Source of the DNA: an uncultured Chloroflexia bacterium
Lineage (GTDB): Bacteria; Chloroflexota; Limnocylindria; Limnocylindrales; CSP1-4
Direction: 5' to 3'
Length of the DNA stretch: 64,000 nt
Assembly: GCA_963741445.1 (NCBI GenBank)
Contig: CAVUIE010000001.1
Location: 510,566-574,565 of the forward strand
The notes below the pieces were generated by a model. That model saw only the letters and a program-made list of their open reading frames with translations, made no database searches and had not been told where the DNA came from. The position numbers and the translations under genes are program-made. Below are positions 16,619 through 53,304 of the stretch, in pieces; position 1 is the first letter of the stretch, and each line of letters starts with the position of its first letter.

Positions 16619-19600
16619 TCAGCGGACCCCGGTCCGGCGGCGGTAGGCGACGGCGCCGGCGGCGGCGATCGTCGCCGCGAGTACCGCGCACGCCGCGATC
16701 ATCGCGGCACCACCAGGCACCGCCCGGAATGGGTCACGGGCCGCGTCGGTCGGTGGCGGGGTGGCAGTCGGGACCGGCGTCGGCGCGGCAGCCGTGACGA
16801 TGATGGTCAGGACCGCGGTGTCGCATACCGCCTGGTCGTTGGGGCTGCAGACCTGGTAGGTCACCTGGTCGGTGCCGACGAACCCGGCGTTCGGTGTGTA
16901 GATGATCGAGCCGATGACCGCGGTCCCGTTCGTCGGCGGGGTCACGATGGTCGGCGCGCCGGCGTCGCCGATGTCGTTGGCCTCGACATCCACCTCGACC
17001 GGCGTGCCGTCCGTGGTCGTCGCGGCGTCGTCCACGGCGAGCGGGCTGACCGTCACCGTCACCGTTCCGGTGTCGCACAGGCTGGGCGTACCGTCGTCGC
17101 AGCCCTCGACCGTGAACGTATCGGTGCCGGTGAAGGTGCCCGTCGGGGTGTAGATGAATGCGCCGCTGTCGTCGACGGTGGCCGTGCCGTTCGCCGCGCC
17201 GACCGTCACCGACATGGTGATGGTCTGGCCCGCGTCGGGATCACTGACGGCCACGCTCCCGGTCGCCTGGACGGTGGCCGTCGTCGACGCGGTCGCGTCG
17301 CCCACGACGGGGGGCTCGTTCGGGATCGCGGCGACGTCGACGGTCACGGTCGCGGTGGCGCAGACGGTGGGCGAGACGGTGCTGCAAACCTGGTAGTCGA
17401 AGCTGTCGGTGCCGGTGAAGCCCGGGGTCGGCGAATAGGTGATCGTGCCGTCTGTCTCGACCGTCGTGGTGCCATTCCCGGGCGCCACCACGACCGTCGG
17501 CGCGCCGACCGCGCCAAGGTCGTTGGCCGCGATGTCGACGTTGACCGGCACCCCGTCCGTGGTCGTGGCCGCGTCGTCACCGGCAACCGGGTTGACGGTC
17601 ACCGTCACGACCCCGGTGTCGCAGAGGCTCGGGGTCCCGTCGTCGCAGCCCTGGACCGTGAAGGTGTCGATGCCGGTGAACGTGCCCGTCGGCGTGTACG
17701 TGAAGGCCCCCGTGTCGTCGACGGTGCCGACGCCGTTGATCGCCGCGACCGTCACGGTCATCGTCACCGTCTGCCCGACATCCGGGTCGCTGACCGCCAC
17801 GTTCCCCGTGGCCGGGACGGTCGCGGTCGTGATCGCGGTCGCGTCCCCGACGACCGGCGGCTGGTTCGGCGTCGCGGCCACGTCGACGGTCACGGTCGCG
17901 GTCGCGCAGACGGTCGGCGACACCGTGCTGCAGATCTGGTAGTCGAACGTGTCCGTGCCCGGTGAAGCCCGGCGTCGGCGAGTAGGTGATGGTGCCGTCC
18001 GCCTCGACGGTGGTCGATCCGTTCGCCGGGCCGCTCACCACCGTCGGGGGACCGGTATCGCCCAGGTCGTTCGCCGCGATGTCGACGTTGACCGCGACGC
18101 CGTCCGTGGTCGTCGCCGCGTCGTCCCCGGCGAGCGGGCTCACCGTCACGGTCACCACGCCGGTGTCGCACAGGCTCGGCGTCCCGTCATCGCAGCCCTG
18201 CACCGTGAACGTGTCGGTGCCGCTGAACGCCCCGGTCGGCGTATAGGTGAACGCTCCCGTGTCGTCGATGGTGGCGGTCCCGTTGATCGCGGCGACCGAC
18301 ACGGTCATCGTCACCGTCTGTCCGGCATCCGGGTCGCTGACGGTGACGCTTCCGGTCGCCGGGACGGTCGCGGTCGTCGCGGCCGTCGCGTCGCCGACCA
18401 CGGGCGGCTGGTTCGGCGTCGGGGCCACGTCCACGGTCACGGTCGCCTGATCGCAGGCCGTGGGCGCGGCCACGCTGCAGATCTCGTAGACGAAGCTGTC
18501 CGTGCCCGTGAAGCCTGGGGTCGGGGCGTAGGTGATCGAGTCGTTTGGCTGCACGGTGGCGGTGCCATTCGCGGGTCCGCTGACGATCGTGGGCGCGCCG
18601 GCCGATCCGATGTCGTTGGCCGTGACGGTGACGTTGACCGCGACCCCGTCCGTGGTCGAAGCGGCATCGTCCACCGCGAGCGGACGGACCGTGACCGTGA
18701 CGTGGCCGCTGTCGCACAGGACCGGGTCGCCATCGTCGCAGCCGACGACCACGAACTCGTCGATCCCGGTGAACGTGCCCGATGGCGTGTAGGTGAACGC
18801 GCCGGTGTCGTCGATCGTCGCCGTGCCGTTCGCCGGCGCGACCGCCACGGACAACGTCACGGTCTGCCCGGCGTCCGGGTCGCTGACGGCCACGCTCCCG
18901 GTGGCCGGGATGGTCGCGGCGGTCGTCGCGGTGGCGTCACCGACGGCCGGCGGCTGGTTCGGCGCGGCGCCCACCTCGATGGTGACCGTCGCCTGTCCGC
19001 AGACCGTCGGCGAGATCGTGCTGCAGACCTCGTAGACGAAGGTATCGGTACCGGTGAAGCCTGGCGTCGGCGAGTAGGTGATCGAGCCGTCGGCCTCGAC
19101 CGTGGCGCTCCCGTTCGCCGGCCCACTCACGACCGTCGGCGCTCCGGTGTCGCCCAGGTCGTTGGCGGCCACGTCCACGTTCACCGGGACCCCGTCCGTG
19201 GTGGTCGCCGTGTCGTCGGCGGGGATCGGCGCGATCGTGATGGTGACGGTGCCGCTGTCGCACAGGCTCGGGCTGCCGTTGTCGCAGCCCGTCACGACGA
19301 ACGTGTCGATGCCCGTGAACGCACCCGTCGGCACCCATTCGAACGAGCCGTCAGGCCCCACGGTCGCCGTCCCGTGTCCCGGCGGCGTCGTCAGCGACGC
19401 AGTGACGACCTGGCCGGTGTCCGGATCGCTCATCGGGACGACGCCGGTGAGCCGCGAGGTCGGGATCCAGTCGATGCTCACATCGTCCACGACCGGTGGC
19501 TGGTTTGCCGGCGGGGCCGCATCGACCACCGTGGTGACGATCGCGTTCGGGCTCGAGCCGTCGTTGTTCCCCGGCCGCCCGTCGACGGACGTCGAGGTGG

Positions 19601-20929
19601 CGGAGACCACGGCCACCAGGGTTCCCGACGCCGGCGCGGTCCCGGTCACGGTGAAGATCCGGGTCGCGCCGGGGGCCAAGGTGCCGACCGTCCAGGTGAC
19701 CGTGCCGCCGCCGATCACGCCGCCACCATCGGCCGCCACGCCGCCGAGCGCCGGCGGCAGCGCCTCCGTGACGACCACCCCGGTCGCTGTGGTCGGCCCG
19801 CGATTGACCGCCACGATGGTGTAGGTGATCGTCCCGCCCGGAGCCACGATGGCCGGTCCAGCCTGGACGACCGAGACGTCGGCGGTCGCCGGTGGGACCG
19901 TGCCGCAGCCGAACGGCAGGTCCGCCAGGCCCGTCCTCGTCACCGGAGCGGCCACGACGTTCGTGACGGTGCCGTTCTGCGTGTCGAAGATCTGGCTGCC
20001 GGTCGGCGACGTGTCGTCGAAGACGATCGGCTGGGCGGCGGACAGCCCGCTGAAGACGTTCTGGGTGACCGTCGTTGCCGGTGAACGAGAACTCGCCGAA
20101 GCCGGTCACCGAGCCGCTGTTGGTCATGTTCGCACCGGTGGTGACGCCGACGATCCCCTGGAAGAACGTGCCGTTGTTCTGCCACGTCGTCCCGGGATCG
20201 AGCTGGATCCAGCCGCCGTTGAGGACCTGGGAGCCGTTGTTGAGGCCGTTGCGGATCCGCATGACGCAGGCGTTGCCGAGCAGCGCGCTGCTATTGAGGT
20301 TCACGCTCCCGGCGAAGTCGAGCGACCCGGTGTTCAGCACGCCGCCGTTGAGGTTCGTTGATCCGTTGATGGTCAGCGTCCCGCCGTTCTGCACGACGCC
20401 GCCGTTCTGGTTGAACCCGTTCGAGATCGTGGCCGTGCCGTCGTTGACGAAGGTCGCCGAGGTGTTGAACCCATTCGGCATCGTCCACGTGGCCCCGGCG
20501 TGGTTCGTCAGCGTCGCCGGGCCGTTCGTGTTGAAGCCGCTCGGGAAGTCGGCAAGGCCGAAGTTGTCGTAGGTGAAGCCACCCTGGACCGACGTCCCGG
20601 GCATCACGACTCGGCCGCGGTTGTACAGGGAGCCGGCCGCGTTGTTCATGTACGGCGGCTGGAAGGTCGCGGAGGCAGCCACGCAGATCACGCCGCCGCT
20701 CGCCCAGCTGTTGACGCCGCCCTGGAACGTGCCGGCGGAGATGAGGACGACGCTGGTCGAGGTCACGTCGATGGCCGTCGTCGAGCTCGACGCCGATCGT
20801 CGTGGTCGGGCTCGCGCACGCGTCGTCGTAGGCGTCGGCCAGGACCGTCAGCGGAGCGGCGGCCCAGGCGCCGAGCATCGTGACGAAGGCCAGCAGGGCA
20901 AGGACGGCGGGCGAGCGTCGTCGGTGCAT
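16619..20929 (-). CDS. Giant cell-surface protein of about 1,430 aa. It has a signal peptide, a beta-helix-like NGG-rich region, a DUF11-like domain, about eight tandem-95 (cadherin-like or Big_9) repeats and a C-terminal TM anchor. It is split over four ORF-track frames.
   Basis: The signal peptide is MHRRRSPAVLALLAFVTMLGAWAAAPL. The repeat unit reads DDAATTTDGVPVNVDIAANDLG...GTITYSPTPGFTGTDSF.YQVCS. DUF11 reads GTITYTIVAVNRGPTTATGVVVTEALP. The C-terminal anchor reads AAMIAACAVLAATIAAAGAVAYRRRTG. Confidence 0.7.
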
Positions 20930-20973: not shown

Positions 20974-21731
20974 TCACTCCCATCGGAACCATCGGACGGC
21001 CACGCCGACGGCCGCGACGGCCCAAACGCGCCGACGACGACGAGGGCCGGGCCGGCCTCGCCGGCCCCGCCGAGGGCGACCCGGAACGCCTCGACGAGGG
21101 CGCCCGCCGGGAGCAGTCCGCCAAGGGTCGCCAGACGGGCCGGCAGGTGGTCGAGCGGGATCACGACCCCGCCGAGCAGCAGGCAGGCGATGAACAAGGC
21201 GTTGGCAAGGGTCAGCGTCGCCTCGGCCCGCAGCGTCCCGGCGAGCGCGAGGCCCGAGTCCGGCGAACGCGGCGGTCCCGATGAGCAGCGTGATCGCGAA
21301 CAGCGGCCACGAGACCCCCGATCCCGGGCGCCAGCCGAAGACGGCGGCGGCGATCGCCATCAGGACGAGCACCACGAGGACTTCGATCGATGAGGATCGT
21401 CAGCGAGCTTCGCCGCGATCAGCCCGGTCCGCCCGAGCGGCGACCCGCCGAGCCGCTTGAGGACGCCGTACGACCGTTCGTAGGCGGTCGCGATCCCGAG
21501 GTTGACGAGCCCGGCGGCGATGACCGCCAGGGCGAGCGTGCCCGGCAGCAGGACGTCGATCCGCGCCTGGCCCGCGGGGACCGGCACGAGATCGACCGAG
21601 CCGAAGAACAGCAGGACCGCCACCGGGATCCCGACCAGCGCCAGCAGGTTCTCGCCACGTCGCGAGGTCAGGCGCGCCTCCATCGCGACCTGGGCCAGGG
21701 TCGCCCGTGGCCAGCTTGCCGCGGCGCTCAT
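20974..21731 (-). CDS. ABC-2 family transporter permease with several frameshifts.
   Basis: Hydrophobic helices are found in three frames (ORFs 21419..21658, 20974..21375 and 20763..21197). The ATG overlaps the ATPase stop (ATGA). Confidence 0.6.
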
Positions 21732-22655
21732 GCCGCGCCGACCAGGGCGAGGTAGGCATCCTCGAGCGAGCCGCCGACCGAGCGCGATTCGACGACCAGC
21801 AGGCCCTCGGACGCGGCCCAGGCCGTGATCGCCGCGGTCAGGTCCGGGGTCGGGCGGCACGCCGGCGATGGCGTACCAGTCCGCCTCGACGACGACGCTG
21901 GCGCCCGCCGTTGCCCCCGCCGCGGCGGCCAGGGCCTCCACCTGGGCGGGCGTCAGCGGTCGCTCGAAGCGCAGCCGCAGCCGCGGACGGAGGCCGGCGG
22001 CGAGCTCGGCGGGCGTGCCCGCGGCGACGACCCGCCCGTCCACCAGGATCGCGATCCGGTCCGCGAGCCGCTCGACGTCGGCCAGGTCGTGGCTGGTGAG
22101 CAGGATCGCGACGCCCGCCGGCCCGCAGGTCGGCGACGATCCGCGCGGGTCGCGGCGCGGCCCTCCGGGTCCATCCCGGCGGTCGGCTCGTCGAGCAGGA
22201 CCACCTCCGGGCGCCCGACCAGCGCCAGGGCGAGGCCGAGCCGCTGCCGCTCGCCGCCCGACAGGCGCCGGTAGCGGGTGTCGGCGACGCCACGCAGCCC
22301 CACGAGGTCCAGCAGCTCGTCGGGGTCGCGCGGGTCCAGCGTGGAACGCCGCGTACTGGCGCAGGGTCTCGCGCGGCCGGGCGCGCATGTCGATGCCGCC
22401 GCCCTGCAGCATCAGCCCGACCCGGGCGCGCAGCTCGCGACCGCCGGCGGCGGGGTCCAGCCCGAGGACCCGGGCGCTCCCGGCGTCCGCGCGACGATAG
22501 CCCTCGACGATCTCGACGGTCGTCGTCTTGCCCGCGCCGTTCGGCCCGAGCAGCGCCACGATCTCGCCGGCCCCGACCTGGATCGAGACGTCGTCGACCA
22601 CCGCTCGATCGCCGTACCGCTTGACCAGGCCATCGAGCTCGATGGCGGCAGTCAC
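21728..22655 (-). CDS. ABC transporter ATP-binding protein with several frameshifts.
   Basis: Walker A reads [10 protein letters not shown]. The signature and Walker B motifs ([28 protein letters not shown]) lie in an alternate-frame ORF (21953..22303). The H-loop reads [16 protein letters not shown]. Confidence 0.75.
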
Positions 22656-22722
22656 GGCGCGATCCGCGCGTACTGGCGTTCGAAGTCGGCGTCCGTCAGC
22701 TCGCCGATCTGGATCGACCGGA

Positions 22723-23160
22723 TCACGCCGGTCCCGTCCACGAAGTAGGTCTGCGGTCGCCCGGCGACGCGATAGGCCGATCTTGAGCGACTTGTCCGGA
22801 TCGACGACGGTCGGCCACGTGGCGCCGTACTCGCGCGACGAACTCCCGGGCGGGGACGACCGGGTCGTCGGTCAGGACCCCCACGATCTCGAGCCCGTCG
22901 GCGGCGTGCTCGGCCAGCTTCCCCTCCAGGAGCGGGAACTCGTCGCGGCAGGGCACGCAGGACGGTCCCCAGAAGTTGACGACGGCAGGATGACCGCGCA
23001 GCGACGCCAGGTCGAAGGCCGCCCCGTCGAGGGTGGTGCCGGCGATCGGCGGCGCCGCCTCGCCGACCGCCGCCTTCGGGCCGCCGCGGATCGAGCCGGC
23101 GACGAGGACGACGACCATGGTCGTGACCAGGGCGATGGCGACCGCGAGCAGGATCGGACG
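22723..23160 (-). CDS. TlpA/ResA-like thiol:disulfide oxidoreductase, membrane-anchored, with a C-terminal frameshift.
   Basis: The thioredoxin-fold active site reads [17 protein letters not shown]. There is a hydrophobic N-terminal anchor. The start codon is uncertain. Confidence 0.65.
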
Positions 23161-23181
23161 ACGTGGCGTGGCGGACCCGGC

Positions 23182-24297
23182 CTATTGCAGGGTGGCGGCG
23201 CCCGTCATGTCCGGGTGGATCGTGCAGACGAACGTGTACGAACCTGCGGGCAGTGACGGGACGTCGTACACCACGGTCTTCACGCCCGGGAACGGCTCAC
23301 CCTGGTAGACGCTCGCCCCGGACGCGTCCTTGAACTCGACGTTGTGGTTGGCACCCGCATCCTGGTTGGTGAAGACGACGGTGAACGGCTTGCCGGCCGG
23401 TGCCGTGACGCTCGACTCGATGAACTTGAGGCCCTGGGCGGTGATGCTCACGTCACCGGTCGGCGCCGGGGACGCGGGGCCGGCGCTGGGCGGGGGCGCG
23501 CCCGACGGCGCAGGACCGGATGGGGCCGGCGACCCCGATGGCGTCGCCCCGCCGGCGCTCGCCGTGCCAGGCGGCAGGATCCCGGTCTGGAACAGCACCC
23601 CGCCCACGAACAGGACGGTCAGGGCCGTGACCATCAGCCTCGGGACGCGCGGGTCGGGGGCATTCTCGAGGTGGCCGGTCCGGTCCGCCTCGACCGTCCG
23701 GCGGTATTCGCCGATCGCGTCGAAGAGCCACGGGACCAGCGTCAGGATCAGGGCGAAGACACCGGCCAGGAGCAGCCAGCCGCCGAAGACGAGCCCGAAC
23801 ATGAGGATCGCCAGCCCGATGGCGCCGATGATCGGCCGGAACGACGGTCCGGGCATGTGGACGCCGGGCGGCGGGCCGTCGTGGACCACGGCCGGGAGCG
23901 CGGGGATCGTCTCCTCGACATCGTGCTCGTAGAGGCGCATCGACTCGCGGAACCAGTACAGCAGCGTCAGGACCAGCGCGAGGATGCCCAGCCAGAGGAT
24001 CGGGCCGGGGAAGACGATGCCGAGGAAGAGCAGGAACAACCCGACGGCCGCGAAGACCGGGGCGAACGACGGCCCCGGCATGTGGATGCCGGCCGGTGTC
24101 TTCGGCGGGACGGGCATCTTGCCGCGCCGGGCGGGCGGGGCCCCGCGCAGACGCCGGATCGTGTAGATCAGCCAGACGATGACGACCGCCATCACGCCGA
24201 CCGGCAGCAGCAGGATGAGGCCGCCCCAGTCGGGGATCACCAGCTTGCTGGTCAGATCCAGGAACCAGTTCCAGATCTGCTCGAGCATCTCGACCAA
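23182..24297 (-). CDS. Membrane protein with two tandem subunit-IV-like (actinobacterial CtaF-like) modules fused to a C-terminal cupredoxin (blue copper) domain.
   Basis: The motif HMPGPSF.P...A.G...LW is repeated twice, each copy with two TM helices. The C-terminus (TVVFTNQDAGANHNVEF...YTFVCTIHPDMTGAATLQ) carries type-1 copper ligand spacing H...C..H....M. Confidence 0.65.
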   Translation of the reverse strand: MVEMLEQIWNWFLDLTSKLVIPDWGGLILLLPVGVMAVVIVWLIYTIRRLRGAPPARRGKMPVPPKTPAGIHMPGPSFAPVFAAVGLFLLFLGIVFPGPILWLGILALVLTLLYWFRESMRLYEHDVEETIPALPAVVHDGPPPGVHMPGPSFRPIIGAIGLAILMFGLVFGGWLLLAGVFALILTLVPWLFDAIGEYRRTVEADRTGHLENAPDPRVPRLMVTALTVLFVGGVLFQTGILPPGTASAGGATPSGSPAPSGPAPSGAPPPSAGPASPAPTGDVSITAQGLKFIESSVTAPAGKPFTVVFTNQDAGANHNVEFKDASGASVYQGEPFPGVKTVVYDVPSLPAGSYTFVCTIHPDMTGAATLQ

Positions 24298-24329
24298 GGG
24301 TCAGCCCCGCGCGACGGGGGTCGGGCGGG

Positions 24330-24521
24330 TCACTCGTGCGAACCGGCGATGAGGACGTACGCCATGAGGCTCATCGCGATCCCCAGGAAGAGCAGCATCG
24401 TCACGCCGGCATAGTCGACCTCCCAGCCGCCGATCGTCGGGACCGCCCAGTAGACGATGGCGATCGCGACGAAGACGAGGCCGACGAAGACCGAGTTGCG
24501 CGGGTGTCGGAGCGGATGCAT
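24330..24521 (-). CDS. Cytochrome c oxidase subunit IV-like small membrane protein.
   Basis: This 63-aa two-TM protein lies between the cupredoxin-fusion gene and ctaE. Confidence 0.5.
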   Translation of the reverse strand: MHPLRHPRNSVFVGLVFVAIAIVYWAVPTIGGWEVDYAGVTMLLFLGIAMSLMAYVLIAGSHE

Positions 24522-24533
24522 GGCGCCCTCTCC

Positions 24534-25211
24534 TCAGTGCGGCGCGTTGCCGGGCAGGATGTAGAGCAGCGAGAACAGCAGGATCCAGACGACGTCGACG
24601 AAGTGCCAGTAGAGCGAGGCGGCCTCGACGGCATCGTGGTGCTTCGGGGAGAACTGGCCGGCGATCCCGCGGTAGAGCACCACGCCCAGCATGATCACGC
24701 CGCCGAAGACGTGGGCGCCGTGGAACCCGGTGAGCGTGAAGTACGTGGTCCCGAACGTTCCCGACGTCAGCGTCACGCCCTCCTGGCCGAGCAGCGCGTA
24801 GTCGGTCAGCTGCATCACGAGGAAGACGCCGCCGATGACCAGCGTGACCGCGAAGAAGCGCAGGAACGCGGTGCGGTCGCCGCGCCGGATCGCCCAGACG
24901 CCGAACTGGCACGTGAACGACGAGATGATCAGGAGGATCGTCGCCGGCAGGACCAGCGGCAGCATGTCGACGTGGAACGCCGCGCCGGTCTCCGGGTCGA
25001 TGGGCGGCCACTGGCTGGCGTTGGCCCGGACGTTGAAGTAGGCGGCGAAGAGGCCGGAGAAGAACATCACCTCCGAGGTGATGAACAGCAGCATCCCGAG
25101 GACCGGGTTGCTGATCCCGCCGCTCACGTCGTGGTCCAGGCCGCCGAAGCGATGGTCCCCTTCGGGCGTCGCGTCGACCACTGGGGCGATGGCGCTGGCG
25201 TTCGTCGTCAT
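24534..25211 (-). CDS. ctaE: Cytochrome c oxidase subunit III.
   Basis: The protein is 225 aa. It has LGMLLFITSEVMFFSGLFAAYF and a C-terminal HFVDVVW motif typical of CoxC. Confidence 0.85.
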   Translation of the reverse strand: MTTNASAIAPVVDATPEGDHRFGGLDHDVSGGISNPVLGMLLFITSEVMFFSGLFAAYFNVRANASQWPPIDPETGAAFHVDMLPLVLPATILLIISSFTCQFGVWAIRRGDRTAFLRFFAVTLVIGGVFLVMQLTDYALLGQEGVTLTSGTFGTTYFTLTGFHGAHVFGGVIMLGVVLYRGIAGQFSPKHHDAVEAASLYWHFVDVVWILLFSLLYILPGNAPH

Positions 25212-25224
25212 CGTCGTCGTCCGC

Positions 25225-26853
25225 TCAGTGGCCGCTGGTCTGGGGGTGGCGAGCGTCGAAGAGCGGGCGCTCGGAGCGGATGTCGGGCAGGTGGTCGAAG
25301 TTGTAGGCGGGCGGCGGCGAGCTGGTCGCCCACTCCAGCGTGTTGGCCTCCCACGGGTCGTCGCCGGCGGGCTTGCCGCTGCGCAGCGAGATGAAGATGT
25401 TCCAGAGGAAGGGCAGCATCGACAGCGCGATCGTGAACCCGCCGATCGTGGCCACGATGTTGAGGTCCTGCCAGCCGGCCGCGGACGAGTAGTCGGCGAT
25501 GCGCCGCGGCATGCCGACCAGCCCCAGCTCGTGCATCGGGAAGAACGTCATGTTGAAGCCGATGAACATGAGCAGGAACTGCGCGCGGCCCAGGGTCTCG
25601 TTCAGCATCCGGCCGGTCATCTTCGGGAACCAGTAGTAGAAGCCGGCCATGATCCCGAAGACCGAGCCGCCGAACAGGACGTAGTGCAGGTGCGCGACCA
25701 CCCAGTAGGTGTCGTGCAGGGCGAAGTCCACCGGGACGGCGGCGCTGAACGCCCCGTTGATGCCGCCGATCAGGAACATCGTCAGGAAGCCGAGGGCGAA
25801 GAGCAGCGGCGTCCGCAGCATCAGCTGGCCGCGCCACATCGTGAAGATCCAGTTGAACATCTTCACCCCGGTCGGGACCGCGATGAGGAACGTCATCAGG
25901 CTGAAGAACGGCAGGAAGACCGCGCCGGTCGTGAACATGTGGTGGGCCCACACGGAGAACCCGAGGGCGCCGATTCCGGCCGTGGCGAAGATGAACGCCT
26001 TGTAGCCGAACAGCGGCTTGCGGCTGAAGACGGGCAGGATCTCGCTGATCATGCCCATCGCGGGCAGGACCATGACGTAGACCGCCGGGTGCGAGTAGAA
26101 CCAGAAGACGTTCTGGTAGAGGATCGGGTCGCCGCCGTTGCGCGGGTCGAAGAAGGCGCCGCCGAGGTTCCGGTCGATGAACAGCATGATCAGGGCGCTG
26201 GTGATGACCGGCGTGGCCATCAGGACCAGCACCGAGGTGACCAGCACGGTCCAGACCATGATCGGCATCCGGAAGAGCGTCATGCCCGGGGCGCGCATCT
26301 TGAAGATCGTGACGAGGAAGTTGATGGCGCCCAGGATCGAGCTGGTGCCGATCAGGACGAGCGCGACGATCCACAGGTCCTGGCCGGACCCGGTGGCGGC
26401 CAGGGCATGGTCCTCCGACAGCGGGGGATAGCTCGTCCAGCCCGCGGCGGCCGTGCCGCCCGTGACGAACCCGGCGAGGAGCAGCACGCCGGCCAGCGGC
26501 AGCATCCACAGCGAGAGCGCGTTGATGCGCGGGAACGCCATGTCCGGGGCGCCGATCTGGAGCGGCACGACGTAGTTCCCGAAGCCCGCCAGCATCGGGA
26601 TCACGAACAGGAAGATCATGAACGTGGCGTGCATCGAGAACAGCTCGTTGTAGCCGTGATCGGTCACGAGCTGGAGGCCGGGGAACGCGAGCTCGGAGCG
26701 GACGAAGAGCGCCAGCACGCCGCCGATGAAGAAGAAGACGAACGAGTTGATCACGTACATGATCCCGATCTTCTTGTGATCGGTCGTCGTGATCCAGTCG
26801 TACAGGCTGCTCCGATACGTCGTGGCGGCCGGCGTCAACGTGGTCGTTGCCAT
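25225..26853 (-). CDS. ctaD: Cytochrome c oxidase subunit I (aa3-type haem-copper oxidase catalytic subunit).
   Basis: The intact 542-aa ORF has DHKKIGIMY, histidine ligands in the WAHHMF and HYVL contexts, and 12 TM helices. Confidence 0.9.
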   Translation of the reverse strand: MATTTLTPAATTYRSSLYDWITTTDHKKIGIMYVINSFVFFFIGGVLALFVRSELAFPGLQLVTDHGYNELFSMHATFMIFLFVIPMLAGFGNYVVPLQIGAPDMAFPRINALSLWMLPLAGVLLLAGFVTGGTAAAGWTSYPPLSEDHALAATGSGQDLWIVALVLIGTSSILGAINFLVTIFKMRAPGMTLFRMPIMVWTVLVTSVLVLMATPVITSALIMLFIDRNLGGAFFDPRNGGDPILYQNVFWFYSHPAVYVMVLPAMGMISEILPVFSRKPLFGYKAFIFATAGIGALGFSVWAHHMFTTGAVFLPFFSLMTFLIAVPTGVKMFNWIFTMWRGQLMLRTPLLFALGFLTMFLIGGINGAFSAAVPVDFALHDTYWVVAHLHYVLFGGSVFGIMAGFYYWFPKMTGRMLNETLGRAQFLLMFIGFNMTFFPMHELGLVGMPRRIADYSSAAGWQDLNIVATIGGFTIALSMLPFLWNIFISLRSGKPAGDDPWEANTLEWATSSPPPAYNFDHLPDIRSERPLFDARHPQTSGH

Positions 26854-26862
26854 CGGGTTCCC

Positions 26863-27240
26863 TTACTGCACCGTCAGCGTGCCGGTCATGTTCTGGTGGA
26901 CGAAGCACTCGAAGGGGTAGGTGCCCGCGGGCAGCGGTCCGACCGGGTAGTTCTCGGTCGCCACGCCCGGGAAGACCTTGCCGTCGAAGACGACCTGGCC
27001 GCCGATCGAGTCCTTGAAGATCTTGACGTTGTGCGGCACGGACGCGTCCTGGTTGTCGAACTTGATGGTGATCGGCGCGTTCGCGGGGGCCGACACGGCC
27101 GGGGTCGTGAACGCCACGTTCTTGGCGACGATGTCGACCGTGACCGGGGGTGCCGCCGGGCCGCCGCCGGTGCCGCCGCTCGCGGAGGGGGCCGGGGACG
27201 GCGACGGCTTCGGCGCCGTCTGCCTGGGCCAGCCAGGCAT
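26863..27240 (-). CDS. Cupredoxin (plastocyanin-like) domain. It is either fused to the C-terminus of CoxB by a 1-nt frame change or a separate small blue-copper protein.
   Basis: The sequence ITIKFDNQDASVPHNVKIF...YPFECFVHQNMTGTLTVQ shows the H...C..H....M copper site. Its frame continues out of the coxB 3' end at about 27240, and no plausible independent start with a signal peptide is present. Confidence 0.55.
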   Translation of the reverse strand: MPGWPRQTAPKPSPSPAPSASGGTGGGPAAPPVTVDIVAKNVAFTTPAVSAPANAPITIKFDNQDASVPHNVKIFKDSIGGQVVFDGKVFPGVATENYPVGPLPAGTYPFECFVHQNMTGTLTVQ

Positions 27241-28048
27241 CGAAGTCGGAGCCGGACAGCGCGTGCACGTCGAACAGCATGATCGCGTGGCCGGTGCCGC
27301 ACAGCTCGGCGCACTGGCCGCGGAACGTCTGGCCGGCGTCCTTGTCATCCACCTTGAAGTCGAACTGGTTGATCCGGCCCGGGACCACGTCGCGCTTGAA
27401 CAGGAACTGCGGGACGTAGAACGCGTGGATGACGTCGTGGCTGGTCAGGTACAGCTGGACGGTCCGACCGGTCGGGACGACCAGGCCGCCGTCCGCGCCG
27501 GTCGGGACGAACTGGCTGAACAGCGGATCCGGCGCCGGCGGGATGTTCCCGTTGGCATCCTTGACCGTGGTGTAGGTGTCCGGCATGTAGTCGAACTGCC
27601 ACTGGAACTGCCCGGCGACCGCCCGGATCTTGAGGTCCGGCACCGCGGTCTTGGTGTCGACGACGTTGAGCGTCTGCCAGGAGACCACGAACAGGGCCGC
27701 CACGATGATCGTCGGGACGACCGTCCAGACGAGCTCGGCGATCGCGTTGCCGTGCGTCTGGGCCGGGAGTTCGACATCGTCCGGCTTGCGCCGGTAGCGG
27801 AGGACCGTGTAGACGATCAGCCCTTCGACGAGGAAGAAGATGATCGCGGCGATGAGGAAGACGATGGTGTAGAGGTCCCGGATGTGGGCTCCCTGCTCGG
27901 TCACCGCGACCGGTGGGAACAGGCTCTCGACGATCCGCGCGCCGGCGCCGCTGATGAGGGCCAGGACCAGGAGGAGGGCCACGCCGAAGGCGACGAGCAC
28001 GGTCGCGAGGATCGAGCCGGTGGGGCGCGCGCTTCGGGTGCTCGACAT
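27240..28048 (-). CDS. coxB: Cytochrome c oxidase subunit II (CuA subunit).
   Basis: The protein has two N-terminal TM helices and the CuA motif HDVIHAFYVPQF...CAELCGTGHAIM. Confidence 0.85.
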
Positions 28049-28233: not shown

Positions 28234-29261
28234 ATGCGCCGTCGATCGGTCCTCGCGCGGGCTGGCTGGGTCGCCGGGCCGCTCGTCATCTGGCTCGCAG
28301 CCGCCCCGTCGGCCGCCGCCCACGGCGCCGGCCCCGGCGGAGCCGCCGACGCTCGCCAACCTGCTCCTCGGCTGGACCTGGGAGCCGCTCCCGACCCTCG
28401 CCATCGGGGTCTCGCTGGTCTGGTGGTGGTGGGCGGTCCGGCGGGTCGACGCCGCCCACCCGGGCAACCCCGTGCCGCGCCGTCGGTCGGTCGCGTTCGG
28501 GCTCGCGATGCTCGCGCTGGCCTTCGCGCTGATCTCGGGGATCGAGCGCTACGACACGACGCTGTTCTCGGTCCACATGGTCCAGCACATCCTGCTGATG
28601 CTGGTCGCGGCGCCGCTCATCGCGCTGGCCGCGCCGATCACGCTGATCCTGCGCGTCTCGTCACCGACGACGCGCAAGCGCCTGGTGCTGCCGGTCCTCC
28701 ACTCGCGGGTGATGCGCGTGCTCGCCTTCCCGGTGGTCGCCTGGCTGCTCTTCGCGGTCGTCATGTGGGTGTCGCACTTCTCGCCGCTGTTCAACGCGGC
28801 CCTCGAGGACCCGTTCGTCCACACCCTCGAGCACGTCCTGTTCCTGGCCAGCGCGCTCCTCTTCTGGTGGCCGGCGGTCGCGCTCGACCCCGCCCCGTGG
28901 CGGATGGGCCATCCGGGACGGCTCGATGCACGTCTTCATGCAGATGATGCAGAACACGTTCCTCGCGGTCGTGATCCTGTTCGCCTCGGGCGTGCTCTAC
29001 CCGCACTACGCGACGGTCGTCCGCGACTGGGGCCCGACCCCGCTCGACGACCAGCGTCTGGCCGCCGGCATCATGTGGTTCGTCGGCGACCTGATCTTCC
29101 TCTCCGCGATCATGGCGATCGTCGCGGGCTGGATCCGGACCGACGCCCGCGACACGGCCCGGACCGACCGCTACGCCGCGGTCGAGATGGCCGAGATCCG
29201 CGTCCGCGAGCAGCGGCTCGCCGAGCGGCTGGCCCGCGAGCGCGGAGAGACGCCGGGGTAG
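28234..29261 (+). CDS. ctaG: Cytochrome c oxidase assembly factor CtaG (Caa3_CtaG family membrane protein), divergent from coxB, with two frameshifts.
   Basis: The signal or TM start is MRRRSVLARAGWVAGPLVIWLAAAPSAAAHG. The protein then reads LANLLLGWTWEPLPTL...FSVHMVQHILLMLVAAPLIALAAP. The C-terminal part is in ORF 28926..29261. Confidence 0.7.
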
Positions 29262-37969: not shown

Positions 37970-39236
37970 CTAGCCGCCGGTGATCTCCGTCCACGCCTTG
38001 GTCCACGCGTCGAAGTCCTTGCAGATCGGCCCGCGGCCGTCGAGGCACTCGGTCGTGGGCGTGTTCCAGTAGTAGATGTTCTTGAAGTACGCCTCGTCGT
38101 CGGCGTGGAACTGCTCGCAGTGGCCGGCGGTCTGCTTCTCGGCCTCGGCGCACGCCGGCGCGCTGACCGGCGCCTCGCCGAAGTAGACGGTCACGTCCGC
38201 GTTGGCCTTGGGCGAGATGATGTAGTCCATCCACTTGTACATGCAGTTCGGGTGCTTGGCCTTGGACGAGATCATCCAGGTGTCGGACCAGCCGGTGGCG
38301 CCTTCCTTGGGCGTGACGCTGGCGACCTGCTTGCCGCCGGCCGCGTTGATGGTGTTCTGCTGGTACAGCCAGGCGCGTGCCGATCGCCATGTCGCCGTTG
38401 GCGAACCCGTCGATCTCCTCCTGGGCGGTGCCCCAGTACTTGCCGATCAGGGCCTTCTGCTGCTTGAGCAGGTCGACCGCTGCCTCGAACTGCGCCTCGT
38501 CGAGCGCGTACGGGTTGGTGATCTTGAGGTCCGGCTTGGTCTTCATCAGGTACAGCGCCGCGTCGGCGATGTAGATCGCGTAGTTGTAGGCGGTGACCTT
38601 GCCCTTGTAGGGCGAGCTCGCGTCGAAGACGACGCTCCAGGAGTCGGGCGCGGTGGTGACGACCGTCGGGTCGTACATGAGGACGTTGGCGCCGCGACCG
38701 TGGGGCACGCCGTAGCTGACGCCGTTGACGGTGTTGTAGGACTGGTTCTTGAGGCCCTCGAAGACGTCCTTGTAGTTCGGGATCAGGCTCGAGGTTGACC
38801 CCGGCCACGTCGCCGCCGGCGATCAGCCGGAGGGTCGCGTCGCCCGAGGCCGAGACGCCGTCGTACTGGCCGGTCTTCATGAGCTGGACCATGTTGGCCG
38901 AGTCGACGCCGACCTTCGACGTTGACCTTGCAGCCGGTCGCCGTCTCGAACGGGGTGACCCAGTCGTAGCCCTGCACCTGCTCGCCGCCGGTCCCGCCGA
39001 CGACGTAGCCGGTCCAGGCCACGAGGTTGAGCGCGCCCTCGCCCTCGCCGACGGACGTCGGGCCGACCTGGCTCGGCGCGGCCGACGGGGCCTCGCTGGC
39101 GGCCGCGCTGGCCGCCGCGCTCGGCTGCGACGCTGGCCGCAGCGGACGGGGCCGTGCTGGCCGTCCCGCCGCTCGAACACGCCCCGACGACGACCGCCGC
39201 CACCGCGGCGAGCGCCAGGATCCTGTGCTTCCTCAT
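37970..39236 (-). CDS. potD: Polyamine (spermidine or putrescine) ABC transporter substrate-binding lipoprotein, frameshifted.
   Basis: The lipobox reads [12 protein letters not shown]. Type II PBP sequences ([30 protein letters not shown]) are spread over ORFs 38877.., 38272.., 37920.. and 37970... Confidence 0.65.
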
Positions 39237-39258
39237 CCCGTTGCTCCTCCTCCTCGCG

Positions 39259-40301
39259 TCACGCCCCGTCCGCGACGGGGAGTGCGTGCTGTCGCTTCCA
39301 GATCAGGCGGACAGCGTTGCCTTCCTGTGCGAGCGCCTCCATCGACGACGTGTCGAGGTTCTGGCGAAGGACGACGAGGCGGGCCCCGGCGTCGAGGTTG
39401 ACGATGTAGCGGGTGTCCGAGCCGAGGTAGACGACGTCGTGGATCCGGCCGTCGGCCGCGATCTCGTCGTCGCCGACCGCGGCGCCCGGCGTCGGCCAGC
39501 CGGATCTTCTCGGGCCGGATCGTGAAGGTGCCGGCCGTCCCGATGACGGCCTGGGCGACGTCGCCGGTGAGCAGGTTGGACGTCCCCACGAAGCCGGCGA
39601 CGAACCGCGTCGCCGGATGCTCGTAGACGTCGGCCGGCGCCCCGACCTGCTCGATCCGGCCGCGGTTGAACACCGCCAGCCGGTCGCTCATGGTCAGCGC
39701 CTCCTCCTGGTCGTGGGTCACGTAGATGAAGGTGATGCCGACCTGCTGCTGGATGGCCTTGAGCTCGATCTGCATCTCCTCGCGGAGCTTGAGGTCGAGC
39801 GCCCCGAGCGGCTCGTCGAGCAGGAGGACGCGCGGCCGGTTGATGAGCGCGCGCGCGAGCGCGACCCGCTGGCGCTGGCCGCCCGAGAGCTGGCTCGGCC
39901 TGCCGCCCCTCGTAGCCCTCGAGCCGGACCATCCGGAGCGCCTCGGTGACGCGGGCGGCGCGATCGGCCTTGGCGACCTTGCGGACCATCAGCCCGTACG
40001 CGACGTTGTCCCCGACGGTCATGTGCGGGAAGAGCGCGTAGTCCTGGAAGACCGTGTTCACGTCGCGGTCGAACGGCGGCACGGTGGTCACGTCGGTCCC
40101 GTGCAGGAGGACGCGGCCCGCGGTCGGCAGCTCGAACCCGGCGATCATCCGCAGCATCGTGGTCTTGCCCGAGCCGGACGGGCCGAGCATCGAGAAGAAC
40201 TCGCCGTCGCGGACGTCGAGGTCGATGCCGTCGACCGCCACGACATCGCCGTAGCGCTTCTCGACCCCCTCGAGTCGCACGGCGACGGGCGCCGTCGGCA
40301 T
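39259..40301 (-). CDS. potA: Polyamine ABC transporter ATP-binding protein, frameshifted.
   Basis: Walker A reads [10 protein letters not shown]. The Q-loop and signature region lies in an alternate frame. The H-loop reads [13 protein letters not shown]. The C-terminal TOBE-like domain lies in ORF 39233..39775. Confidence 0.75.
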
Positions 40302-40493
40302 CGCGCTGGGTCCCGGTTCCGGGACGGTGGTCGGGATGGCCAATCGGACCTCGACAGCTGGGGGCGGATCGCGCCGGATGCGGTCCTCGCCGGGTGCGGT
40401 TCGGGGCACTGTGCCGTCGCGCGGGCGGGGCTGTCAAGGGAACCGGCGGCACGTTCCGGGGACCGCGTCGGGCGCCCGCCGTAGACTCCGCGC

Positions 40494-41045
40494 GTGCCCC
40501 GTCCCTCGAGCCTCGTCCGCTCGCTCGTCCTGCTCGTGCCGCTGCTGCTGGCCGCCTGCGACCCGGAGCCGGTCGCGGTCACGCCGATCCCGGTCGGCGG
40601 CACGAACGACGCCCCGCGCGAGGTCAACCTCATCGCCAAGGACTACACGTTCGTGCCGCCGGTCCTGGACCTCGTCCCCGGCGAGACCGTGATGCTCCAC
40701 ATCGTCAACGGCGGGCTCGACGTCCACGAGGTCGTCATCGGCGACGGCGCGGTCCAGGACGCCTGGGAGGCCGCGGAGGCGGCGCTCGACGGGGCGCCGC
40801 CCGGTCCCACGCCCGTCGTGAGCGTCGCGCCCGACACTCGGCGGCGTGCGCGTGGTCGTCCCGTCCGGCCAGCGCGTCGACCTGCTCTGGGAGGTCCCGG
40901 CGGACGTCCCGACGACGTTGCCGCTCCCGAGCGCGAGCGCCACCCCGGACCCATCGGCCTGGACGGTCGAATGCCACATCCCCGGGCACCTCGCGAAGGG
41001 CATGTGGATCCCCATCCGGTGGGTCGTCAGACACGCCCTCGTGAG
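40494..41045 (+). CDS. Cupredoxin-domain lipoprotein (type-1 blue copper). It has a frameshift near 40850, and its 3' end is uncertain.
   Basis: The signal plus lipobox reads LVLLVPLLLAACDPEP. The cupredoxin core has DVHEVVIGDG and a copper site ECHIPGHLAKGMW in the ORF 40846.. frame. Confidence 0.55.
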
Positions 41046-41116
41046 GGGCGCCGGTGGTACGCTTCGTGCGTGCCGGCTGGGGTACGCCGAGCCGCCCCGC
41101 CTTCAGGAGGACCCGA

Positions 41117-41407
41117 ATGGCCTACGTGATCGCCGAGCCCTGCATCGACGTGCTCGACATCTCGTGCGTCTCCGTCTGTCCGGTCGACTGCATCCACTAC
41201 GACGAAGGCACCGATCGCAAGCTGTTCATCGACCCGAACGAGTGCATCGACTGCGGGGCCTGCGAGCCGGAGTGCCCGGTGAACGCGATCTTCCCCGAGG
41301 AGTCGCTGCCGTCCGAGTGGGCGAAGTTCACGACCATCGACGCCACCTGGTACACGGACAAGTCCGCCGCGCGCGCCGCGGTCGACGAGATCAAACCCTC
41401 GGGCTGA
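41117..41407 (+). CDS. fdxA: Ferredoxin (actinobacterial FdxA-type, 3Fe-4S plus 4Fe-4S).
   Basis: AYVIAEPCIDVLDISCVSVCPVDCIH...CIDCGACEPECPVNAIF is seen. An AGGAGG RBS lies 6 nt upstream. Confidence 0.85.
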   Translation: MAYVIAEPCIDVLDISCVSVCPVDCIHYDEGTDRKLFIDPNECIDCGACEPECPVNAIFPEESLPSEWAKFTTIDATWYTDKSAARAAVDEIKPSG

Positions 41408-47325: not shown

Positions 47326-47862
47326 TCAGGCGGCCGCCGGCTCCGGATCCGCGCGCATCCCGACGGCGATCACCGTCGCGACGCCGATCCCGATCAGGAC
47401 GTCGCCGATGCTGAAGACGTTGGCCAGCGGGATCGCCGCGGGGATCGCGAAGATGTCGGTCAGGAGCCGGAGCGCCGGGTCGGCGACCACGATGCTGTTG
47501 GTCGGTCCGCTGGTGTCCACGCCGGCGGTCGCCAGCGCGCTCGGATCCGCGGGCATGTACCCGCCGTTCGCGACGATCGCGGCCATGTTGCAGAGCGCGC
47601 CGGCGGCGATGACGGGCATGCCGCGCAGCGGGAGGTTGCGGAGCACCGCGGCGAGGACCGCCACGTTGGAGAGGACGTAGACGACCGGCACCGCGTCGCC
47701 GAGCGCGTCCCCGACCGCCATCGAGTAGATCGCCAGCTGGACCACGAAGCCCGCGACCGCGAGCCAGGCCCAGCGGATCCGCAGCCGGGCGAGGGCCCCG
47801 ATCCGGCCGCCCATCAGGAGCCCCACGAGCAGTCCGACCGGGACGGCGTAGACGATGAACAC
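47326..47862 (-). CDS. Multi-pass membrane protein of unknown function (DUF5317-like).
   Basis: The 178-aa protein has five hydrophobic helices. I recognise no catalytic motifs. Confidence 0.4.
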   Translation of the reverse strand: MFIVYAVPVGLLVGLLMGGRIGALARLRIRWAWLAVAGFVVQLAIYSMAVGDALGDAVPVVYVLSNVAVLAAVLRNLPLRGMPVIAAGALCNMAAIVANGGYMPADPSALATAGVDTSGPTNSIVVADPALRLLTDIFAIPAAIPLANVFSIGDVLIGIGVATVIAVGMRADPEPAAA

Positions 47863-47867
47863 GGACG

Positions 47868-48381
47868 GTCAGTCGGACGGGCGGGCTGATCCCGAGGGCC
47901 TGTTCGAGCTGGTCCGCGTGGTCCTCGAGGTGGCGGTAGATGAACCGCCCGAGCCCGAACTCGACGGTCACCTCGCCGAGGCGCGGATGGAGGCCGACGC
48001 GGGCGAGATCCTCGTCGGACCAGGCGGAGCACGCGGCGATGAGGGCCGCGGCCTTCGCGTCGATGCTGGCGTCGAGCTCGTCGAGCGGCCAGTCGCCGCT
48101 CGCGCTCGATGGCGGCCAGGCGGGCGGCGTCGCTCGAGATCCGGCCGAACGGGACCGGCTCGTCGCTCCGGGACGTCGACGATCCGGCCCAGCTCGCCGT
48201 GCCAGAACCCGATCATCTCGTCGACGTGGGCGAGGACCTCGGGCGGGCCCCACGTCGCCTCGGGGGCATCGTCGAACCGCTCCGAGAGCGGCCACGGTGC
48301 CCCGGCGTGGACCGCGGGGCGCAGGGCGGCGAGCCGCGCCCGGCCCGCCTCGATCCGTGCAGGAGCGTCGTTCGTCGCCAT
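47868..48381 (-). CDS. DinB or MDMPI-N-terminal-like (TIGR03083-type) protein, frameshifted, divergent from hpd.
   Basis: ATNDAPARIEAGRARLAALRPAV...WGPPEVLAHVDEMIGFWHGEL reads as the N-terminal helix bundle of mycothiol-dependent maleylpyruvate isomerase-like proteins. Confidence 0.5.
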
Positions 48382-52272: not shown

Positions 52273-53304
52273 GATGCGCATCGCCCACGTCCGCGAGCGG
52301 CACGCCCCGGCGGGTGCGCCCTGGCGGCTGGCCGCGGCTGACCCGTCGGCGGCGCCGGCGTAGGCGATCCGACCCGCTGGATCGACCTCGAGCCGGCCCG
52401 TCGTCGCGCCGTCGCCGACCGGCCCGAGCTGGCGCACGACAGCGCGCTGCATCGCCAGCCGCTGACGACGCTCGACGACCTGCTCGCGCGCCGGATGCGG
52501 GTCGACGCGTTGCGCGACCTCGTCGAGGGCTTCGCCGCCCGCGGCGACGACGACCCGGCGCTCCTCGATGCGGCGGACCTCGTCTTCGGGCCGCCCGTGC
52601 TCCAGCCGCCGTCGATCCGCGACTTCTACGCGTTCGAAGGGCACGTCCGGACGATGTGGGAGCGTCGCGGCGGCGAGGTCCCCGAGGCGTGGTACCGGCT
52701 GCCGATCTTCTACTTCAGCAACGCCTCCGAGGTCCGCGGTCCCGGCGATCCCGTCTGGGCGCCGGCGGCGTCGTCGGAGCTGGACTACGAGCTGGAGGTC
52801 GCGGCGCTGATCGACACCCCGGCCATCGACCTCTCCGACGGCGACGCGGAGGACGCGATCGGCGGCTACACGATCTTCGACGACTGGTCGGCGCGCGACC
52901 TCCAGCGCGACGAGACGACCGTCCGGCTCGGGCCGGCGAAGGGCAAGGACTTCGCGAGCTCCTTCGGGCCGTGGCTCGTGACGCCGGACGAGCTGGCCGA
53001 CGCGCGGTCGGGGACCGGCTACGACCTCGCCATGACCGCCGAGGTGAACGGCACCGAGACCAGCCGCGGCCGCTGGTCGGATGCGCAGTTCTCGTTCGGG
53101 GCGATGGTCGCGCGCGCCTCGGCGGACGCCCGCCTGCGGCCCGGCGACCTCATCGGCAGCGGGACCGTCGGGACCGGCTGCCTGCTCGAGGTCCGCGACG
53201 CGACGCTCGGTCGCTACCTCGAACCCGGTGACGAGGTCACGCTCCGCATCGACCGGCTCGGCGCGCTGACGACCCCGATCGTGGCGCGCCCGCCCGGGAC
53301 CTGA
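52273..53304 (+). CDS. Fumarylacetoacetate hydrolase (FAH) family protein. It has an N-terminal frameshift and is read from ORF 52495...
   Basis: The FAH-fold signature region reads DYELEVAALID...IFDDWSARDLQ. The C-terminus reads DLIGSGTVGTGCLLE...PGDEVTLRIDRLG. Confidence 0.7.

Follow-up and report, generated by a model that had tools for sequence, protein, structure and literature searches.

Cupredoxin domains fused to two subunits of a predicted A2-type cytochrome oxidase in Limnocylindrales Chloroflexota

The oxidase locus and the fusion in subunit II

We analysed a 64 kb stretch of ~72% G+C DNA, here called the window, from a contig of an uncultured Chloroflexia bacterium (CAVUIE010000001.1). 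Six collinear genes on its minus strand, between 28048 and 22655, encode subunits II, I and III of a putative aa3-type heme-copper oxidase, a small membrane protein of 63 amino acids (aa; p63), an accessory subunit of 371 aa (p371) and a thioredoxin-fold protein. Subunit II (CoxB) and p371 each end in a cupredoxin domain with the ligand set of a blue, or type 1, copper (T1Cu) site. The features of the locus are listed below, with the single plus-strand gene last.

27226-28048, minus strand: coxB part 1, encoding an N-terminal hydrophobic segment, two transmembrane (TM) helices and the CuA domain (Pfam COX2_TM, COX2)
27226-27228, minus strand: CCC run with one extra C, the sole cause of the frame change between coxB and the cupredoxin and a probable assembly error
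26863-27225, minus strand: coxB part 2, including the stop codon, encoding a Pro/Ser/Gly/Ala linker and the C-terminal cupredoxin (Pfam Cupredoxin_1)
25225-26853, minus strand: coxA, subunit I, 542 aa (Pfam COX1, TIGR02891)
24534-25211, minus strand: coxC, subunit III, 225 aa (Pfam COX3, E 3e-35), collinear in related loci that are long enough
24330-24521, minus strand: p63, a two-helix membrane protein at a conserved position
23182-24297, minus strand: p371 (Pfam PF12270 and PF13473)
24102-23911 and 23877-23686, minus strand: the two hairpins of p371, each beginning HMPGPSF
23484-23185, minus strand: the cupredoxin of p371, with ligands H318 (in H318-N319), C358, H361 and M364
22655-23178, minus strand: TlpA/ResA-like thioredoxin-fold protein with the motif WGPSCVPC, beginning 4 nt past the p371 gene
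28268-29258, plus strand: Caa3_CtaG-type oxidase assembly factor, divergently transcribed, upstream of coxB

CoxB residues 1-274 (28048 to ~27226) match Pfam COX2_TM and COX2, and the protein scores 177.9 bits against TIGR02866 (cut-off 147.7). The following ~120 residues, read in the +1 frame to the stop codon at 26863-26865, match Cupredoxin_1 above the gathering score (E 6e-12). The CuA ligands are H208, C246, E248, C250, H254 and M257, in the arrangement H...C-x-E-x-C-x3-H-x2-M, and those of the cupredoxin are H339 (in H339-N340), C381, H384 and M387, the last three within the loop CFVHQNM; each set is invariant in 47 homologous sequences. The two domains are joined by a linker of ~25-30 residues rich in Pro, Ser, Gly and Ala (~18-50 residues across homologues, median 31). 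No further hydrophobic segment lies between them, and the cupredoxin would sit on the outer (P) side of the membrane. The AlphaFold2 (AF2) model of the fusion has a mean predicted local distance difference test score (pLDDT) of 80.6, with values of 91-96 for the cupredoxin (302-393), which is preceded by a disordered stretch (278-300).

At E ≤ 1e-10 the reconstructed fusion has 2672 matches among database proteins. The 120 best homologues are nearly all ~370-420 aa long, with COX2_TM, COX2 and Cupredoxin_1 in one open reading frame (ORF). Two of these 120 are 99% identical to the window, and their junction reads AWLARQTAPKPSPS; a peptide such as AWLARQTAPKPSPSPAPSASGGTGGGPAAPPVTVDIVAK would span it. 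The earlier note, made from the window sequence alone, had proposed that the CuA subunit is fused to a cupredoxin with neither a start codon nor a signal peptide between them. This is borne out by one 394-aa ORF in P0001/L082, of which L082 is an independent metagenome contig from JGI, and by 79 of 80 related genomes, and the relatives show no stop, start or signal peptide at the junction. The His/Cys/His/Met set on which the copper assignment depended, when checked by alignment, proved invariant in both cupredoxin domains of the operon.

The frame change that separates the two halves of coxB in the window had been placed at about 27240. It is present, but lies at 27226-27228 instead. Over 2272 nt, the window and the L082 contig share 98.6% nucleotide identity with a single gap, where L082 has CC and the window CCC, and L082 encodes the intact 394-aa fusion. 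The extra C is also absent from three further related loci (L010, L001 and L002), and tblastn frames change over at 27222-27224.

Were the frameshift genuine in this strain, CoxB would have a long out-of-frame tail, and the cupredoxin would be lost by pseudogenisation, made separately, or reached by programmed +1 frameshifting. The extra base is present in the window, the coxB frame as sequenced stays open for 946 codons, and the fusion gene of a 93% identical locus (L005) is likewise broken by 1 nt in the G+C-rich linker region. However, the L005 break lies elsewhere in the linker (L005:10831-10908), whereas the 98.6% identical contig and 79 of 80 genomes are intact, and the site in the window is a homopolymer in 72% G+C DNA. 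The cupredoxin frame has no start codon followed by a signal peptide, which would prevent export of a separate product, and because the coxB frame never closes and overruns coxA in the wrong frame, a real product of the uncorrected frame is implausible. Programmed +1 frameshifting was rejected, as there is no slippery site, the base is missing from the 98.6% identical contig and L005 is broken at a different place. The same type of break affects at least seven other genes of the window whose orthologous ORFs are intact in related genomes, counted as frame switches against those orthologues (a GC3 plot was too noisy for strand calls). The breaks that we located are as follows.

~20073, ~22800 (tlpA), ~28925 (ctaG), ~34727 and ~40800-40835: frame breaks relative to intact orthologous ORFs
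21360-22655 and 39233-40409: two ABC ATPase genes with frame breaks inside them, relative to intact orthologous ORFs

We regard a genuine frameshift as very improbable. The extra C is almost certainly an assembly indel, to judge from these comparisons, and by sequence the native gene is a single ORF of 394 codons. Because at least seven other genes of the window are broken, a long-read homopolymer error is the most likely source of the indel; the link to long reads is drawn from general background and the size of the contigs. Long contigs of the MFD series of metagenome-assembled genomes are the nearest relatives, and p371 has a 100% identical copy on a 688-kb contig. For genome scanning this is a caution, as the frame change, the most striking feature of the raw sequence, is an assembly error on this reading. 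As a separate observation, the linker stretch of coxB-cupredoxin genes is apparently especially error-prone, given breaks at different positions in the window and L005.

A second cupredoxin on a duplicated CtaF-like protein, and conservation of both fusions

The second cupredoxin lies downstream, on p371, which consists of an N-terminal helix, a first TM helix, two tandem CtaF-like hairpins, a sixth TM helix, a disordered linker of ~40 residues and the cupredoxin. Over 61 aa, the two HMPGPSF modules share 48% identity (E 5e-19). Against Cyt_c_ox_IV (PF12270) p371 scores 38.5 bits (cut-off 26.9) in two stretches that cover profile positions 82-125 only, and a PF12270 match is precomputed in most p371 homologues. 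Tandem subunit-IV-like modules and a second cupredoxin in one protein, as first noticed in the window, are thus confirmed by the PF12270 match, the internal repeat and the Cupredoxin_1 match. The cupredoxin is 49% identical to that of CoxB (E 9e-27), and both contain the amicyanin-type C-x2-H-x2-M loop and the His-Asn motif, as read from the sequence. Residues H72, H147, H318, C358, H361 and M364 of p371 are invariant in 51 loci.

In the AF2 model of p371, an N-terminal helix, a TM helix (24-51), the two hairpins (79-127 and 154-207) and a further TM helix (220-238) precede a disordered segment (241-281) and a cupredoxin (283-370) with pLDDT >94. The linker varies from 27 to 125 residues across homologues (median 42). 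Because the six predicted helices have Arg/Lys-rich loops on the alternate side, the C-terminus and its cupredoxin would be on the outer side of the membrane. Amicyanin is the closest solved relative of this cupredoxin by sequence (E 8e-6) and its best Foldseek match (1id2, E 7.8e-8), followed by auracyanin (6kol, 2.9e-7), with plastocyanin also among the matches.

Actinobacterial CtaF (PF12270; PDB 8HCR chain H and 6ADQ chain H) provides the parallel for the modules, in that HMPGPSFxP corresponds to FSPHSWWP. However, CtaF has ~140 aa and four helices, whereas p371 matches the C-terminal hairpin alone, in duplicate, with extra helices and a cupredoxin behind. An hhalign comparison of the p371 family with Mycobacterium tuberculosis CtaF is weak (E 0.018). 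As far as these matches indicate, p371 is CtaF-like in its modules and not a CtaF orthologue.

Upstream of p371, p63 has no match in Pfam, NCBIfam or the PDB. It is kept at the same position in all loci that extend to it and is probably a small oxidase subunit. We considered whether p63 is the N-terminal half of CtaF; hhalign gives no more than a hint of this (M. tuberculosis CtaF residues 9-46, E 0.013), and there is no PDB profile match.

A scan of one genome per species yielded 584 relatives of the query, of which the best 80 loci were retained. The genomes are titled Candidatus Limnocylindrales or Limnocylindria, Chloroflexota, or 'uncultured Chloroflexia', except for a few whose labels seem to be noise from binning or naming; Candidatus Limnocylindrales is an order within Chloroflexota. 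An alignment to related Actinomycetota had been suggested at the outset, but the named relatives are all Chloroflexota, many of them labelled Candidatus Limnocylindrales. An actinobacterial origin was rejected on these grounds, and NCBIfam models of actinobacterial aa3 oxidases fall below their cut-offs.

In 79 of the 80 loci, one in-frame tblastn segment spans both the CuA domain and the cupredoxin, and a full p371 homologue is found in one segment in 52. The order coxB-cupredoxin, coxA, coxC, p63, p371 is unchanged in every locus of sufficient length. The tlpA-like gene follows immediately downstream in 60 of 79 loci, and ctaG is upstream in 79 of 79. Because every locus that is long enough repeats the five-gene order together with both fusions, the arrangement is not due to chance, and the fusion is, by this comparison, real and conserved in the lineage. 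The cupredoxins of CoxB and p371 form two sets, with identities of 58-62% within and 47% between sets, and the nearest neighbour belongs to the same set in 105 of 105 cases. This suggests that the cupredoxin duplication is older than the radiation of the sampled lineage; on these identities, the two sets are distinct, separately conserved paralogues.

The two genes that flank the operon are both frame-broken in the window. The TlpA-like gene switches from frame -2 to frame -1 near 22800, and its intact L010 orthologue matches Pfam AhpC-TSA and Redoxin; the protein is probably a copper-site biogenesis factor. The ctaG gene switches from frame 2 to frame 3 near 28925, and its L010 orthologue matches PF09678 (E 2e-69). 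No gene for heme O synthase (CtaB) or heme A synthase (CtaA) was found across the window and the ±10 kb flanks of the relatives.

Oxidase class and a possible copper route for electron entry

So, what kind of oxidase is this? CoxA scores 713.6 bits against TIGR02891 (cut-off 670.75), matches Pfam COX1 at E 2e-164 and contains the motifs HPAVY and WAHHMF. Its helix VI, in translation, reads FWFYSHPAVYV. We take the YSHPxV motif (FYSHPAVY in CoxA) to be the A2 signature of the Pereira classification, which replaces the glutamate of A1 GHPEV and is common to the caa3 enzymes of Thermus and Rhodothermus. The oxidase is best read as an A-family, A2-subtype, aa3-type heme-copper oxygen reductase.

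Among solved structures, CoxB comes closest to subunit II of the Thermus thermophilus caa3 oxidase (2yev_B), by sequence (E 1.6e-33) and by Foldseek (E 8.7e-16). The pairwise alignment extends through FDAWLARQTAPKPSPSPAP against FDRFVEAAKASPAPVA, which in Thermus is the start of the linker leading to cytochrome c. Past about residue 295 of the fusion, no solved chain aligns except a stand-alone auracyanin (residues 288-346). The first Trp of Paracoccus QWYW, the reported electron entry site W121, is replaced by Phe in CoxB (QFQW) and in Thermus (QFWW). It had been proposed that a copper domain stands where caa3 oxidases have cytochrome c, and this holds at the level of sequence and fold. Since the 394-aa fusion has only three cysteines (C246, C250 and C381) and no CxxCH motif, the oxidase, as predicted here, is not a caa3 enzyme; the C-terminal domain of its subunit II is a Cupredoxin_1 domain and not a cytochrome c.

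The Thermus enzyme (subunit IIc, PDB 2YEV) offers several parallels. Both enzymes are A2-type with YSHPxV in subunit I, the CuA domain of each contains QF.W in place of QWYW, and in both a one-electron carrier is fused after CuA through a Pro/Ala-rich linker. In both a small two-helix subunit follows, and we take p63 to resemble subunit IV of Thermus caa3 in position and size. Here, however, the carrier is a T1Cu cupredoxin, the linker is longer and predicted to be disordered, and a second carrier is attached to another subunit.

Copper proteins fused to oxidase subunits are known from haloarchaea, where halocyanin, the proposed donor of the ba3 (B-family) oxidase, is fused to subunit IIa (PMC3128077). 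Like p371, that protein joins a blue-copper donor to a small membrane subunit of an oxidase. However, it is archaeal and B-family, anchored by the single IIa helix at the C-terminus of halocyanin, whereas the present protein belongs to a bacterial A-family operon, has a six-helix anchor with duplicated CtaF-like hairpins and a C-terminal cupredoxin, and is accompanied by a subunit II that also bears one. The likeness is an analogy only.

Auracyanins are blue copper proteins with a single domain, tethered to the membrane, and are proposed to stand in for soluble cytochrome c. Those of Chloroflexus and Roseiflexus (PDB 2AAN, 1QHQ, 6KOL) come from the same phylum and are among the top structural matches. 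They are, however, separate proteins with an azurin-type loop, whereas the present domains have a short loop of amicyanin/plastocyanin type, are fused to oxidase subunits and are distant in sequence (E 0.9 and 1.7e-4). Acidophiles provide further cases, as the 'cup' cupredoxin (AcoP) gene precedes COX2 in the rus/cta operon of Acidithiobacillus (bioRxiv 10.1101/2020.03.01.968255), and sulfocyanin SoxE belongs to the SoxM supercomplex of Sulfolobus. Like the present domains, AcoP and SoxE are membrane-bound cupredoxins inside heme-copper oxidase operons and are proposed to feed the oxidase; unlike them, they are separate genes of acidophilic iron and sulfur oxidisers, unfused to subunit II or to a IV-like protein.

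The idea of a tethered donor is thus known in kind from caa3, halocyanin-IIa, SoxM and cup. What differs is that a T1Cu domain is fused to the CuA subunit of a bacterial A-family oxidase, that a second is attached to a duplicated CtaF-like protein, and that both are fixed in a large lineage. We found no description of a CoxB-cupredoxin fusion in Chloroflexota in the literature searched, which included a 2026 paper on Limnocylindria genomics; most subscription journals were outside this coverage, so an earlier mention is possible.

Soluble or fused cytochrome c is known to supply heme-copper oxidases with electrons; in some archaea, cyanobacteria and acidophiles, separate blue copper proteins do so. 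With a probability of roughly 0.7, we read the locus as an A2-type aa3 oxidase with two tethered T1Cu domains on its outer face, which would do the job of the cytochrome c of caa3 enzymes by passing electrons from T1Cu to CuA. The earlier note had already suggested a copper-protein route of electron entry, and the domain architecture, ligand conservation and folds support that reading. From these we infer that the sites would be occupied by copper, and in which direction, by which route and from which donor electrons would flow.

In the proposed sequence of events, a quinol-oxidising complex encoded outside the window would reduce a tethered T1Cu domain, which would swing or dock onto subunit II and hand on its electron. 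The route may run from the T1Cu of the IV-like subunit to that of subunit II and then to CuA, or from each T1Cu straight to CuA. From CuA, electrons would take the normal route through heme a and heme a3-CuB to O2, and the TlpA-like thioredoxin and CtaG would serve copper-site assembly. The long disordered linkers of the models fit a swinging-arm shuttle. In Chloroflexota, auracyanin is thought to connect alternative complex III to its acceptors, and this role in the same phylum makes a quinol:cupredoxin oxidoreductase the natural candidate donor.

Several points weigh against this picture. Neither a quinol:cupredoxin oxidoreductase nor another donor (bc complex, alternative complex III or cytochrome c) turned up across the 64-kb window and the ±10 kb flanks of the relatives, and the scheme gives no reason for a second tethered cupredoxin. 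The predicted template modelling scores (pTM) of the AF2 models are 0.57 for CoxB-cupredoxin and 0.38 for p371, with pLDDT <50 in both linkers. The window sequence itself carries the frameshift.

A bolder version is that this Chloroflexota lineage would feed its main terminal oxidase by an all-copper entry with no free carrier, in which the long-tethered T1Cu of p371 would pass electrons to the T1Cu of subunit II and on to CuA, as a relay that replaces c-type cytochromes, possibly in an obligate supercomplex with the quinol-oxidising complex. We offer it tentatively, as possible rather than probable. If true, such a Cu-to-Cu-to-Cu wire would be undescribed for a bacterial A-family oxidase.

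The cupredoxins could instead handle copper, as a tethered metallochaperone, store or tolerance module for the CuA and CuB sites, comparable to PCuAC, Sco or CopI. The flanking copper-site biogenesis genes (TlpA-like and CtaG) would suit such a role, copper chaperones in general use cupredoxin-like folds, and a separate CopI-like cupredoxin is encoded in the same window. However, the domains show the canonical redox T1Cu ligands, and their Cys, in an amicyanin-type loop, is invariant, whereas PCuAC-type chaperones have His and Met ligands and are not known to use Cys. Every one of the nearest solved relatives is an electron carrier, and the CoxB domain stands at the exact place of the electron-donor domain of caa3. 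We therefore consider copper handling unlikely.

Electrons might also reach the tethered cupredoxins from an inorganic or extracytoplasmic donor such as Fe(II), rather than from the quinol pool, on the model of rusticyanin and AcoP in Acidithiobacillus or sulfocyanin in Ferroplasma and Sulfolobus. Cupredoxins beside COX2 are a hallmark of the cox operons of iron oxidisers (bioRxiv 10.1101/2020.03.01.968255; PMC10654088), and databases contain secreted poly-cupredoxin proteins of the same subfamily. However, the window and the flanks of the relatives contain no outer-membrane or surface iron-oxidation genes, Pfam searches gave no rusticyanin or sulfocyanin signature above threshold, and all of a large group of heterotroph-like genomes from soil and freshwater have the arrangement. 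An inorganic donor is in our view improbable, to about the same degree as copper handling.

The arrangement is present in 80 or more species-level genomes and has matches among thousands of database proteins, which public annotation calls 'cytochrome c oxidase subunit II' and 'plastocyanin'. A whole, environmentally abundant lineage of Chloroflexota has predicted T1Cu domains built into two subunits of an A2-type oxidase. If the tethered cupredoxins do feed CuA, the enzyme would be the copper counterpart of caa3 oxidases and a natural single-polypeptide system for electron transfer from T1Cu to CuA. It would also bear on how copper availability, rather than heme c biogenesis, limits respiration in these soil and freshwater bacteria.

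Other cupredoxins and further features of the window

A third cupredoxin had been noted at 40494, as a lipoprotein. The protein exists, but it is not part of the oxidase system, from which it is set apart by its subfamily, its loop and a distance of 12 kb.

40485-41028, plus strand: cupredoxin lipoprotein with an LLLAAC lipobox and the azurin-type loop CHIPGHLAKGM, frame-broken at ~40800-40835

The intact L010 orthologue has a weak match to NCBIfam CopI (27.8 bits, cut-off 280) and none in Pfam or the PDB. The gene has an ABC transporter on one side and a ferredoxin gene (41054-41407) on the other. A role in the oxidase was rejected on the loop type, the weak CopI match, the distance from the operon and this gene context.

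A search with the 100-residue cupredoxin domain returned 2378 cluster representatives at E ≤ 1e-3. The best-scoring relatives are poly-cupredoxins of 320-660 aa with three to five tandem T1Cu-type domains (P0253-P0261, P0286 and P0301), which could be multi-copper electron conduits. Another protein (P0351, 665 aa) combines a Ser/Thr protein kinase domain, one copy of the same cupredoxin subfamily and a CarboxypepD_reg domain, an unusual, sensor-like architecture.

Two of the related loci (L014 and L015), which share one contig of 76,410 bp (JBCLDE010000003.1), run in opposite orientation with identical match tables; in both, a partial coxB match lies on the opposite strand 10 kb upstream. The contig has the look of an inverted duplication or a palindromic assembly artefact.

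Elsewhere in the window we noted three features.

16622-20105, minus strand: one or more very large, repetitive surface-protein genes with many Big_9, Cadherin_4, Cadherin_5 and DUF11 repeats
47329-47868, minus strand: DUF5317 membrane protein, unrelated to the oxidase
58066-58986 and 52342-53301, plus strand: a homogentisate dioxygenase-like gene and a fumarylacetoacetate hydrolase gene, respectively (aromatic amino-acid catabolism), likewise unrelated to the oxidase

The first of these is prone to mis-assembly, because homologous ORFs match several of its repeat copies.

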